Origin: Escherichia coli
Lineage (GTDB): Bacteria > Pseudomonadota > Gammaproteobacteria > Enterobacterales > Enterobacteriaceae
Assembly: GCF_030013205.1 (NCBI RefSeq)
Contig: NZ_CP122648.1
Length of the DNA: 64,000 bases
Reading direction: 5' to 3' (one strand)
Of the stretch, positions 5,337 through 30,230 are shown piece by piece (positions within the stretch are counted from its first letter, which is position 1; each line of letters opens with the position of its first letter). A program made the translations under genes and the position numbers. Below the pieces are notes generated by a model. It was not told where the DNA came from, ran no database searches, and was given only the letters and a program-made list of their open reading frames with translations.

Positions 5337-6161
5337 ATGATTTTGACTCCCATACGACGATATGGGGCGATGATTCTTATGTTACTCACTCTGGTGTTTT
5401 CGAGTGAGGTGTTAGCGAAGACGCACACAACAACAGCGAGTCAAAAGTCCCACTTAACTAAAGCTAGTAATAAACAGGTAAGCAGTAAACAAGAGTATTC
5501 TCGCAATAGTGCAAAGAGTAGTTCACTTCCTGATTTGCGAAAATACCCTTCCGGAACACCAAGGAAAAAGGCGTTTCTCCGGACTGTGATGCCTTACATT
5601 ACCAGCCAAAATGCGGCCATTACTGCGGAACGTAACTGGCTGATTTCAAAACAGTATCAGGGCCAATGGTCACCTGCTGAGCGTGCGCGTCTGAAAGACA
5701 TCGCCAAACGCTACAAGGTGAAGTGGTCTGGTAATCCGCGAAAAATCCCGTGGAATACCTTGCTTGAACGCGTAGACATTATCCCCACCAGTATGGTAGC
5801 GACGATGGCTGCAGCAGAAAGCGGTTGGGGAACGTCGAAGCTGGCGCGCAACAACAACAATCTGTTCGGCATGAAATGCATGAAAGGACGTTGTACTAAT
5901 GCGCCGGGTAAAGTGAAGGGGTACTCACAGTTTAGTTCTGTCAAAGAATCGGTGAGCGCCTATGTTACTAACCTGAATACGCATCCGGCTTACTCTTCGT
6001 TCCGTAAATCGCGTGCACAGCTGCGTAAAGCAGATCAGGAAGTGACTGCCACAGCGATGATTCACAAGCTGAAGGGCTACTCGACCAAAGGGAAGAGTTA
6101 TAACAACTACCTGTTCGCAATGTACCAGGATAACCAACGGTTAATCGCGGCACATATGTAA
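5337..6161 (+). CDS. bax: Bax protein (putative glucosaminidase-like)
   Basis: 274 aa, recognised sequence and position between malS and xylR. Confidence 0.9.
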   Translation: MILTPIRRYGAMILMLLTLVFSSEVLAKTHTTTASQKSHLTKASNKQVSSKQEYSRNSAKSSSLPDLRKYPSGTPRKKAFLRTVMPYITSQNAAITAERNWLISKQYQGQWSPAERARLKDIAKRYKVKWSGNPRKIPWNTLLERVDIIPTSMVATMAAAESGWGTSKLARNNNNLFGMKCMKGRCTNAPGKVKGYSQFSSVKESVSAYVTNLNTHPAYSSFRKSRAQLRKADQEVTATAMIHKLKGYSTKGKSYNNYLFAMYQDNQRLIAAHM

Positions 6162-28094: not shown

Positions 28095-28793
28095 ATGATC
28101 ATAAAAAAAAGCGGTGGTCGCTGGCAGCTAAGCCTGCTGGCGAGTGTGGTAATCAGTGCCTTTTTTCTCAACACAGCTTACGCCTGGCAACAAGAATATA
28201 TCGTTGATACGCAACCCGGACATTCCACAGAGCGTTACACCTGGGATAGTGACCATCAACCTGATTACAACGATATTTTGTCGCAACGTATTCAAAGTAG
28301 CCAAAGGGCGCTGGGACTGGAAGTCAATCTGGCGGAAGAAACTCCTGTGGATGTGACCAGCAGTATGAGTATGGGCTGGAATTTTCCTTTATATGAGCAG
28401 GTTACAACCGGCCCGGTCGCGGCATTACATTACGATGGCACAACCACCTCGATGTATAACGAGTTTGGCGACAGTACTACCACGCTGGCCGATCCGTTAT
28501 GGCATGCCAGCGTGAGTACCTTAGGCTGGCGTGTTGACTCCCGGCTTGGCGATCTCCGACCCTGGGCGCAAATCAGCTATAACCAGCAATTTGGCGAGAA
28601 TATCTGGAAGGCGCAATCAGGCCTGAGCCGGATGACGGCGACAAACCAGAACGGCAACTGGCTGGATGTCACCGTAGGCGCTGATATGTTGCTCAATCAA
28701 AATATTGCTGCCTATGCTGCGCTATCTCAGGCAGAAAATACCACTAACAATAGCGACTATCTGTATACGATGGGGGTTAGTGCCAGATTTTAA
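28095..28793 (+). CDS. yhjY: YhjY, autotransporter beta-domain-like outer membrane protein
   Basis: About 232 aa, signal peptide, C-terminal ...TMGVSARF beta-barrel ending. Confidence 0.8.
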   Translation: MIIKKSGGRWQLSLLASVVISAFFLNTAYAWQQEYIVDTQPGHSTERYTWDSDHQPDYNDILSQRIQSSQRALGLEVNLAEETPVDVTSSMSMGWNFPLYEQVTTGPVAALHYDGTTTSMYNEFGDSTTTLADPLWHASVSTLGWRVDSRLGDLRPWAQISYNQQFGENIWKAQSGLSRMTATNQNGNWLDVTVGADMLLNQNIAAYAALSQAENTTNNSDYLYTMGVSARF

Positions 28794-28907
28794 CGTTATA
28801 GATACAATTGAAACCATTGGATAACAACAGTTGTGGCGATAGTGGGTGCTAACTTACTAAATAATAAATTTGGTGAATAATTGTCGAGTCATTCATTCCT
28901 GAACTAA

Positions 28908-28938
28908 TGCATTTCATTCCGTTCTGATGGCATTTCAT
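28908..28938 (+). promoter_or_regulatory. Direct repeats TGCATTTCAT / GGCATTTCAT (11-bp spacer), candidate YpdB response-regulator site of the yhjX promoter
   Basis: Two 10-bp direct repeats 21 bp apart, about 85 bp upstream of the yhjX start; matches my memory of the YpdB motif. Confidence 0.55.
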
Positions 28939-29021
28939 GCCGTTTTTCCCCAGGCATAAAGTGCACTTCGTTATGGTTGTCAGCAGAGATTTTTCCTTTT
29001 TATTACTGCAGGAATACTGCC

Positions 29022-30230
29022 ATGACACCTTCAAATTATCAGCGTACCCGCTGGTTGACACTCATCGGTACTATCATTACCCAGTTTGCGCTGGGGTCGG
29101 TTTATACCTGGAGCCTGTTTAACGGCGCGCTTTCTGCCAAGCTGGATGCGCCGGTAAGCCAGGTCGCTTTCTCTTTCGGCTTGTTAAGTCTGGGGCTGGC
29201 AATTTCATCTTCTGTTGCGGGGAAATTACAGGAACGTTTTGGCGTTAAACGCGTCACTATGGCTTCCGGCATTTTGCTGGGATTAGGCTTCTTCCTGACA
29301 GCGCATTCTGACAACCTGATGATGCTGTGGTTAAGCGCCGGTGTGCTGGTCGGTCTGGCGGATGGCGCGGGTTACCTGCTGACGCTCTCTAACTGCGTGA
29401 AGTGGTTCCCGGAGCGTAAAGGTCTGATCTCCGCGTTCGCTATCGGTTCTTATGGTCTGGGTAGCCTGGGGTTCAAATTTATCGACACGCAGCTGCTCGA
29501 AACGGTGGGTCTGGAAAAAACATTTGTGATTTGGGGAGCGATTGCGCTGGTGATGATTGTTTTCGGCGCAACGTTAATGAAAGACGCACCAAAACAGGAA
29601 GTGAAAACCAGCAATGGTGTCGTGGAGAAAGATTACACGCTGGCAGAGTCGATGCGTAAACCGCAGTACTGGATGTTAGCGGTAATGTTCCTGACTGCCT
29701 GCATGAGCGGCCTGTACGTGATTGGGGTAGCGAAAGATATCGCCCAAAGTCTGGCACACCTTGATGTGGTTTCCGCAGCCAATGCAGTCACTGTTATTTC
29801 CATCGCCAACCTTTCAGGTCGTCTGGTTCTGGGGATACTGTCTGACAAAATCGCCCGAATCCGTGTTATCACCATTGGTCAGGTGATTTCGCTGGTGGGT
29901 ATGGCGGCCCTGCTGTTTGCACCATTGAATGCAGTGACGTTCTTTGCAGCGATTGCCTGCGTGGCGTTTAACTTTGGCGGCACTATCACGGTGTTCCCGT
30001 CACTGGTCAGTGAGTTCTTCGGCCTCAATAACCTGGCGAAAAACTACGGTGTGATTTATCTCGGTTTCGGTATCGGCAGCATTTGTGGGTCGATTATCGC
30101 CTCACTGTTTGGCGGCTTCTATGTGACCTTCTACGTGATTTTCGCCCTGCTGATTCTGTCACTGGCGCTCTCTACGACGATTCGTCAGCCAGAGCAGAAA
30201 ATGTTGCGTGAGGCGCATGGCTCCCTTTAA
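29022..30230 (+). CDS. yhjX: MFS transporter YhjX (oxalate/formate antiporter-like)
   Basis: ORF-track 28977..30230 trimmed to MTPSNYQRTRW (402 aa); 12 TM segments. Confidence 0.88.
   Translation: MTPSNYQRTRWLTLIGTIITQFALGSVYTWSLFNGALSAKLDAPVSQVAFSFGLLSLGLAISSSVAGKLQERFGVKRVTMASGILLGLGFFLTAHSDNLMMLWLSAGVLVGLADGAGYLLTLSNCVKWFPERKGLISAFAIGSYGLGSLGFKFIDTQLLETVGLEKTFVIWGAIALVMIVFGATLMKDAPKQEVKTSNGVVEKDYTLAESMRKPQYWMLAVMFLTACMSGLYVIGVAKDIAQSLAHLDVVSAANAVTVISIANLSGRLVLGILSDKIARIRVITIGQVISLVGMAALLFAPLNAVTFFAAIACVAFNFGGTITVFPSLVSEFFGLNNLAKNYGVIYLGFGIGSICGSIIASLFGGFYVTFYVIFALLILSLALSTTIRQPEQKMLREAHGSL

Follow-up and report, generated by a model that had tools for sequence, protein, structure and literature searches.

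LytTR-type response regulators bind operators made of two repeats of 9-11 nt, spaced 11-13 nt apart, for which no family-wide consensus exists and in which the flanking DNA matters (PMC4847170). The YpdB operator of the yhjX promoter (PyhjX) of Escherichia coli K-12 was characterized in Behr et al. 2016 (PMC4847170), Table 1 of which prints the PyhjX fragment used for surface plasmon resonance with YpdB. After removal of the G/C clamps, this fragment reads CGCGTCATTCATTCCTGAACTAAGGCATTTCATTCCGTTCTGATGGCATTTCATGCCG; it is said to equal all DNase I-protected nucleotides, the limits of the footprint being relayed there at second hand. The mutant oligonucleotides of that paper define the upstream copy of the repeat as site A and the downstream copy as site B.

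Two interactions were seen with the intact fragment; the on/off rates were slow for that of 1.2 nM and fast for that of 21 nM (PMC4847170). Inactivation of site A led to the loss of all YpdB-D53E binding, from which the authors concluded that site B requires an occupied site A, and when site B was inactivated, one binding event persisted (KD of 23 nM). The affinity of site B was about 10-fold lower, and its on/off rates were fast. A sequential 'AB-BA' model was proposed, in which site A fills first, followed by site B, and site B empties first; the flanking nucleotides were stated to 'influence expression in vivo' (PMC4847170). Induction of yhjX by pyruvate proceeds through YpdA/YpdB (PMC5552118, PMC7730263), and 3 mM pyruvate induced the gene 678-fold in K-12 (PMC7660256). 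The site, the regulator, the stimulus, and the binding kinetics are already known from these publications.

The yhjX locus and its direct repeat

The window, i.e., the whole stretch of E. coli DNA analyzed here (64 kb), carries the gene order ghrB-yiaD-bisC-yiaC-tag-yhjY-yhjX-eptB-proK-dppA, the same as at 3.71 Mb in K-12 but in reversed orientation; the yhjY-yhjX-eptB synteny is common to the window and the E. coli genomes. Of 5426 complete E. coli genomes, 5422 were matched by a 601-nt query around the site; all matches were chromosomal, and the annotation beneath them was yhjY followed by yhjX. The name yhjX was taken from the annotation of identical RefSeq genomes. The regulated gene and its ribosome-binding region were located as follows:

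29022-30230, plus strand: yhjX, the regulated gene, encoding a 402-aa MFS transporter of the oxalate/formate antiporter family (RefSeq annotation; TIGR00890, 478.7 bits; PF07690, MFS_1)
29010-29013, plus strand: Shine-Dalgarno-like AGGA, followed by 8 nt and the ATG (read from the window)

The start codon of yhjX occupies positions 29022-29024, and the stop of yhjY is at 28793. The block GCAGGA...CTGCCATG in front of the gene is partly conserved (at least 70%) across genera. A palindrome, TATTACTGCAGGAATA, was found at 29001-29016, where it overlaps the AGGA in front of yhjX. Behr and colleagues reportedly described in 2014 that CsrA controls yhjX at the post-transcriptional level, and the GGA motifs near 29001-29016 could be relevant to it. 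Inverted repeats detected in the region were put down to chance or to the Shine-Dalgarno context; examples are the pairing of 28895-28908 with 29002-29015 and the palindrome with the PstI site (29001-29016).

The gene encoding the regulator, ypdB, lies outside the 64-kb window and was present in 5422 of the 5426 complete E. coli genomes; its product comprises a Response_reg and a LytTR domain. In the current RefSeq record of K-12, ypdA/ypdB are named pyrS/pyrR (2498671-2501117 of K-12), and most other E. coli records keep the name ypdB, so both names, ypdB and pyrR, are needed for literature searches.

The repeat was read in the yhjY-yhjX intergenic region with the following extent:

28908-28917, plus strand: upstream 10-mer (site A), TGCATTTCAT (read from the window)
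28918-28928, plus strand: 11-nt spacer between the 10-mers, TCCGTTCTGAT (read from the window)
28929-28938, plus strand: downstream 10-mer (site B), GGCATTTCAT (read from the window)
28909-28923, plus strand: first copy of the extended 15-nt repeat, GCATTTCATTCCGTT (repeat search)
28930-28944, plus strand: second copy of the extended 15-nt repeat, GCATTTCATGCCGTT (repeat search)

The original prediction, made from the letters of the sequence, had placed two (T/G)-headed copies separated by 11 bp at 28908-28938, about 85 bp upstream of yhjX. The coordinates proved exact, and the gap measured from the end of the site B 10-mer to the ATG (29022) was 83 nt. The segment 28900-28960 includes ...ctaaTGCATTTCATtccgttctgatGGCATTTCATgccgttttt..., and the first three bases of the spacer, TCC, form part of the conserved core of site A in the alignment described below. 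As found by the repeat search, the repeat extends to 15 nt, GCATTTCAT(T/G)CCGTT, with 14 of 15 bases identical and a distance of 21 bp from start to start.

The 64-kb window holds three occurrences of the 10-mer KGCATTTCAT, where 0.63 are expected, and the pair GCATTTCAT-N12-GCATTTCAT with up to three mismatches is expected 0.13 times. The operator repeat was the sole 15-mer (up to one mismatch) recurring at an offset of 12-40 bp within the window. When the 228-bp yhjY-yhjX intergenic region was shuffled 5000 times with its dinucleotides preserved, such a repeat arose in only three shuffles.

Identity with the K-12 operator and conservation across genera

The segment of the window corresponding to the published fragment was identified:

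28885-28942, plus strand: equivalent of the K-12 PyhjX fragment, 56 of 58 bases identical to the oligo of PMC4847170, Table 1

The two differences are A at 28887 (C in K-12) and T at 28908 (G in K-12). Site B and all three 12-mer cores discussed below are the same in the window and in K-12. Of the 20 motif bases, 19 are as published and the spacer is exactly 11 bp; the single mismatch is the first base of site A, where the (T/G) of the original prediction accurately captured a real strain polymorphism. The other elements of that prediction were likewise borne out. YpdB, named as a LytTR-type response regulator, does combine a receiver domain with a LytTR domain; pyruvate-dependent activation of yhjX through YpdA/YpdB is documented (PMC5552118, PMC7660256, PMC7730263); and the published footprint, with which a comparison had been proposed, falls on 28885-28942 and, as its limits are relayed in PMC4847170, not elsewhere. 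The interpretation was correct, since the motif, sites A and B, and the protected fragment all coincide with this segment. Thus, the repeats are almost certainly the YpdB (PyrR) operator of the yhjX promoter in an E. coli strain other than K-12, as judged from the sequence match. The original prediction was thereby confirmed and tied to exact coordinates.

Conservation of the operator was analyzed by a scan with one genome per species. YhjX orthologues with 84-99% identity were found at 80 loci, which represent about 25 Enterobacteriaceae genera. The A/B pair was placed in 79 of these loci, one (L078) being left out because its diverged site B failed the two-mismatch cutoff; counts "of 80" below refer to the 79 loci and the window. 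Sites A and B were found at 21-bp spacing in all 80 sequences, and the alignment redefined their extent:

28908-28920, plus strand: site A, with the core GCATTTCATTCC at 28909-28920; the 10-mer is TGCATTTCAT here and GGCATTTCAT in K-12; core columns 91-100% conserved
28929-28946, plus strand: site B, with the core GCATTTCATGCC and then (G/T)TTTT at 28930-28946; the 10-mer is GGCATTTCAT (cross-species alignment)

The conserved core is a 12-mer, GCATTTCAT(T/G)CC; at site B it reads GCA(T/C)TTCATGCC across species and is followed by (G/T)TTTT. These cores are nearly invariant across about 25 genera, whereas the spacers are variable (about 40-70% per column). The base leading into the core was G in 64% and T in 36% of the sequences at site A, and T in 52%, G in 38%, C in 8%, and A in 2% at site B. 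The leading G of the published 10-mer is outside the conserved core, and, since the leading base varies across species, the T of the window lies within normal variation.

One of the loci, L033, lies on a contig named 'Chryseobacterium sp. 18061' (CACSKA010000004.1). This yhjX locus shares 90% identity with E. coli YhjX and hardly differs from the locus of Citrobacter sp. 18056 (L028); the assembly is probably mislabelled or contaminated. In the window itself, a lone perfect 12-mer, GCATTTCATGCC, equal to the site B core, was observed at 5868-5879 on the minus strand, antisense inside the bax coding sequence. Exact 12-mers are expected about 0.015 times per window (an estimate). A partner for the bax 12-mer was sought at 21 bp on either side and was absent, and the match is probably coincidental.

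The T allele of site A and alternative explanations

An 80-mer of the window centred on the operator was identical in 1624 of 5421 complete E. coli genomes, including an O25b:H4-ST131 strain, and the K-12 version of the 80-mer was identical in 3539. Strain UTI89 (ST95) carries the window allele, and its promoter is identical to that of the window over 28875-28961. About 30% of sequenced E. coli, ST131 and ST95 among them, therefore have T at the leading base of the essential site A. Other species of Escherichia as well as Citrobacter have G at this position, indicating that T is derived within E. coli.

The change from G to T might weaken or retune YpdB binding, so that strains with T (about 30%, B2 lineages such as ST131 and ST95) would differ in the pyruvate threshold or in the pulse of yhjX expression. 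Such an effect is conceivable at this place: site A is the nucleating, high-affinity site, without which all binding is abolished (PMC4847170), the allele divides E. coli into two main haplotypes, and T is the derived state. Against it stands the variability of the position, the least conserved of the published 10-mer, with T frequent in site A and prevailing in site B. The second E. coli polymorphism, 28887, occupies the position in front of unit 0 (the upstream copy described below) that is equivalent to 28908, and both polymorphisms affect the variable base that immediately precedes a 12-mer core, which suggests that both changes are tolerated. None of the 11 intergenic differences between the window and K-12 falls into the 36 core bases, against about 1.7 expected, a difference too weak to discriminate; the argument is carried by the cross-genus footprint instead.

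Expression data exist for a native promoter with the operator allele of the window. The yhjX transcript of UTI89, quantified by RT-qPCR, surged after acid or pyruvate in the wild type and did not in the btsS ypdB double deletion (PMC9765748). The lux reporter of the same study was a plasmid with the K-12 promoter, so only the RT-qPCR, performed with a double mutant, bears on the native T allele; it demonstrates strong induction that depends on btsS/ypdB. The T allele is thus presumably neutral in function. A retuned affinity is the only live alternative and an unlikely one, given the natural variability of the position and the inducibility of UTI89.

Binding of the repeat mainly by another regulator, e.g., the paralogous LytTR regulator BtsR, is very improbable. 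The BtsSR and YpdAB systems are interconnected, and yhjX receives signals from the kinase BtsS in uropathogenic E. coli (PMC5552118, PMC9765748); according to the authors, however, this cross-talk runs through YpdB, i.e., through the same DNA site (PMC9765748), and YpdB-D53E binds the K-12 DNA at nanomolar affinity (PMC4847170). The BtsR/YehT-type pair ACCRCTYA-N13-ACCRCTYA, sought with up to three mismatches, was absent from the yhjX promoter and the whole yhjY-yhjX intergenic region; five such pairs elsewhere in the window, against 3.68 expected, correspond to the chance level. That the repeat arose by chance or through a mutational duplication and plays no part in regulation, a view for which one can adduce only that short repeats are generally frequent in AT-rich intergenic DNA, is refuted by the shuffling statistics and the uniqueness of the repeat in the window, by the near-invariant cores between variable spacers, and by the direct biochemical evidence for the K-12 sequence (PMC4847170).

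Additional units, the putative promoter, and comparison with known operators

Beyond sites A and B of the YpdB operator, three further elements of the promoter region were recognized:

28888-28899, plus strand: unit 0, a degenerate direct copy, GTCATTCATTCC; a phased match with three mismatches, exactly 21 bp upstream of site A
28953-28964, minus strand: decayed inverted copy, GCACTTTATGCC, with two mismatches to the core, one of them at an otherwise invariant C
28972-28977, plus strand: putative -10 hexamer TATGGT; conserved, with the T, A, T, and final T columns at least 85%

The best offset of unit 0 was 21 bp in all 80 sequences. Conservation of its columns is 76-100% (mean of about 95%), on a par with sites A and B and above the spacers (about 40-70%); its consensus across species is G(T/C)CATTCATTCC. 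At 10.5 bp per turn, three units 21 bp apart would lie on one face of the helix. Unit 0 is within the published footprint fragment, which, with the limits relayed in PMC4847170, extends 23 nt upstream of site A and only 4 nt downstream of site B. This suggests that unit 0 may also be contacted by YpdB. The fragment with a mutated site B and an intact unit 0 gave one binding event at up to 50 nM (PMC4847170), which argues against strong binding at unit 0, either independent or cooperative with site A, in this concentration range.

The inverted copy is located between site B and the -10-like element; in 63 of 81 sequences, its offset from site B is fixed at 22-23 nt. It was found with up to two mismatches in 29 of the 81, and only 0.3% of shuffles reached even three or fewer. 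A perfect inverted 12-mer, GGCATGAAATGC, is present at the same offset in nine other species, including members of Yokenella, Pseudescherichia, Kosakonia, and Phytobacter; among the 81 sequences compared, those of Enterobacter, Lelliottia, and Klebsiella had no inverted copy at this offset. The copy at 28953-28964 is outside the K-12 footprint fragment, as delimited in PMC4847170, and is treated here as a putative relic or weak site. If the assignment is true, the inverted copy could give self-limiting, pulse-like expression in the lineages retaining it.

Counted from the first G of site B, a TAnnnT element follows at 41 or 42 nt in every one of the 80 sequences; in the window, TATGGT follows at 42 nt. 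We failed to find a match to the -35 element 17 bp upstream of TATGGT, where CCCAGG (28949-28954) is present; this is as expected for an activator-dependent promoter. We infer that TATGGT would serve as the -10 element of such a promoter, with yhjX transcription starting at about 28983-28985 and the core of site B centred near -48; the start is a predicted one. A full-text literature search gave no published yhjX start, and the supplements of Kim 2012 and Mendoza-Vargas 2009 had no yhjX entry. A consensus promoter scan did not call TATGGT; its single hit, a weak one at 28780-28808, spans the end of yhjY, and no terminator was detected. Such a scan is uninformative where a promoter depends on an activator. 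CATAAA (28955-28960) was rejected as an alternative -10 element: it is poorly conserved and would centre site B near -31, whereas TAnnnT keeps its distance in all 80 sequences.

It is possible, if doubtful, that the complete operator consists of three in-phase 12-mers, with unit 0 acting as a weak YpdB contact for full activation or DNA bending, and of an ancestral fourth, inverted copy over the core promoter. The 12-mer core, the third unit, and the inverted copy are modest leads that refine a known operator and could be of interest to those studying LytTR regulators or the way in which uropathogenic E. coli senses pyruvate.

As to the mechanism, the signal is external pyruvate, which activates YpdA or, in uropathogenic strains, the cross-talking kinase BtsS. 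Once phosphorylated, YpdB would bind site A (28908-28920) first and tightly, and then site B (28929-28946), more weakly and transiently. YpdB binding, the essential role of site A, and the binding order have been demonstrated in the literature for the K-12 sequence (PMC4847170); the identity of the segment with the K-12 fragment and the conservation of the operator across genera come from the present analysis.

The closest described system, the YpdB operator of K-12 PyhjX (Fried et al. 2013; PMC4847170), agrees with the window in locus, orientation, 11-bp spacer, and flanks, and differs in having G for T at the first base of site A and C for A just 5' of unit 0. The BtsR (YehT) operator of yjiY/btsT resembles it in the direct repeats, about 21 bp from start to start, and in being recognized by the LytTR regulator of a pyruvate-sensing two-component system, and each of the two operators drives a single transporter gene. 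Unlike the YpdB operator, it has the unrelated motif ACC[G/A]CT[C/T]A and a 13-bp spacer, and no such pair is present at yhjX. This motif with a 13-bp spacer is said to have been described for BtsR/YehT by Kraxenberger and colleagues in 2012. Here, the BtsR motif type was read from the PyjiY control oligo (PMC4847170, Table 1). Inspection of this oligo by eye showed a pair of ACCRCTYA boxes at a distance of 21 bp and, another 20 bp upstream, a third box of similar sequence, GCCGCTCA. There are hints of a three-unit layout common to both paralogous LytTR operators (YpdB, BtsR).

Among LytTR operators in general, AgrA P2/P3 of S. aureus, the VirR boxes of C. perfringens, and the PlnC/D and ComE sites have the same architecture, represented here by 10-nt repeats and an 11-nt spacer, whereas the sequence in the window is YpdB-specific. 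In comparison with the two-unit LytTR operators, the phylogenetic footprint obtained here points to three in-phase units and a probable inverted relic.
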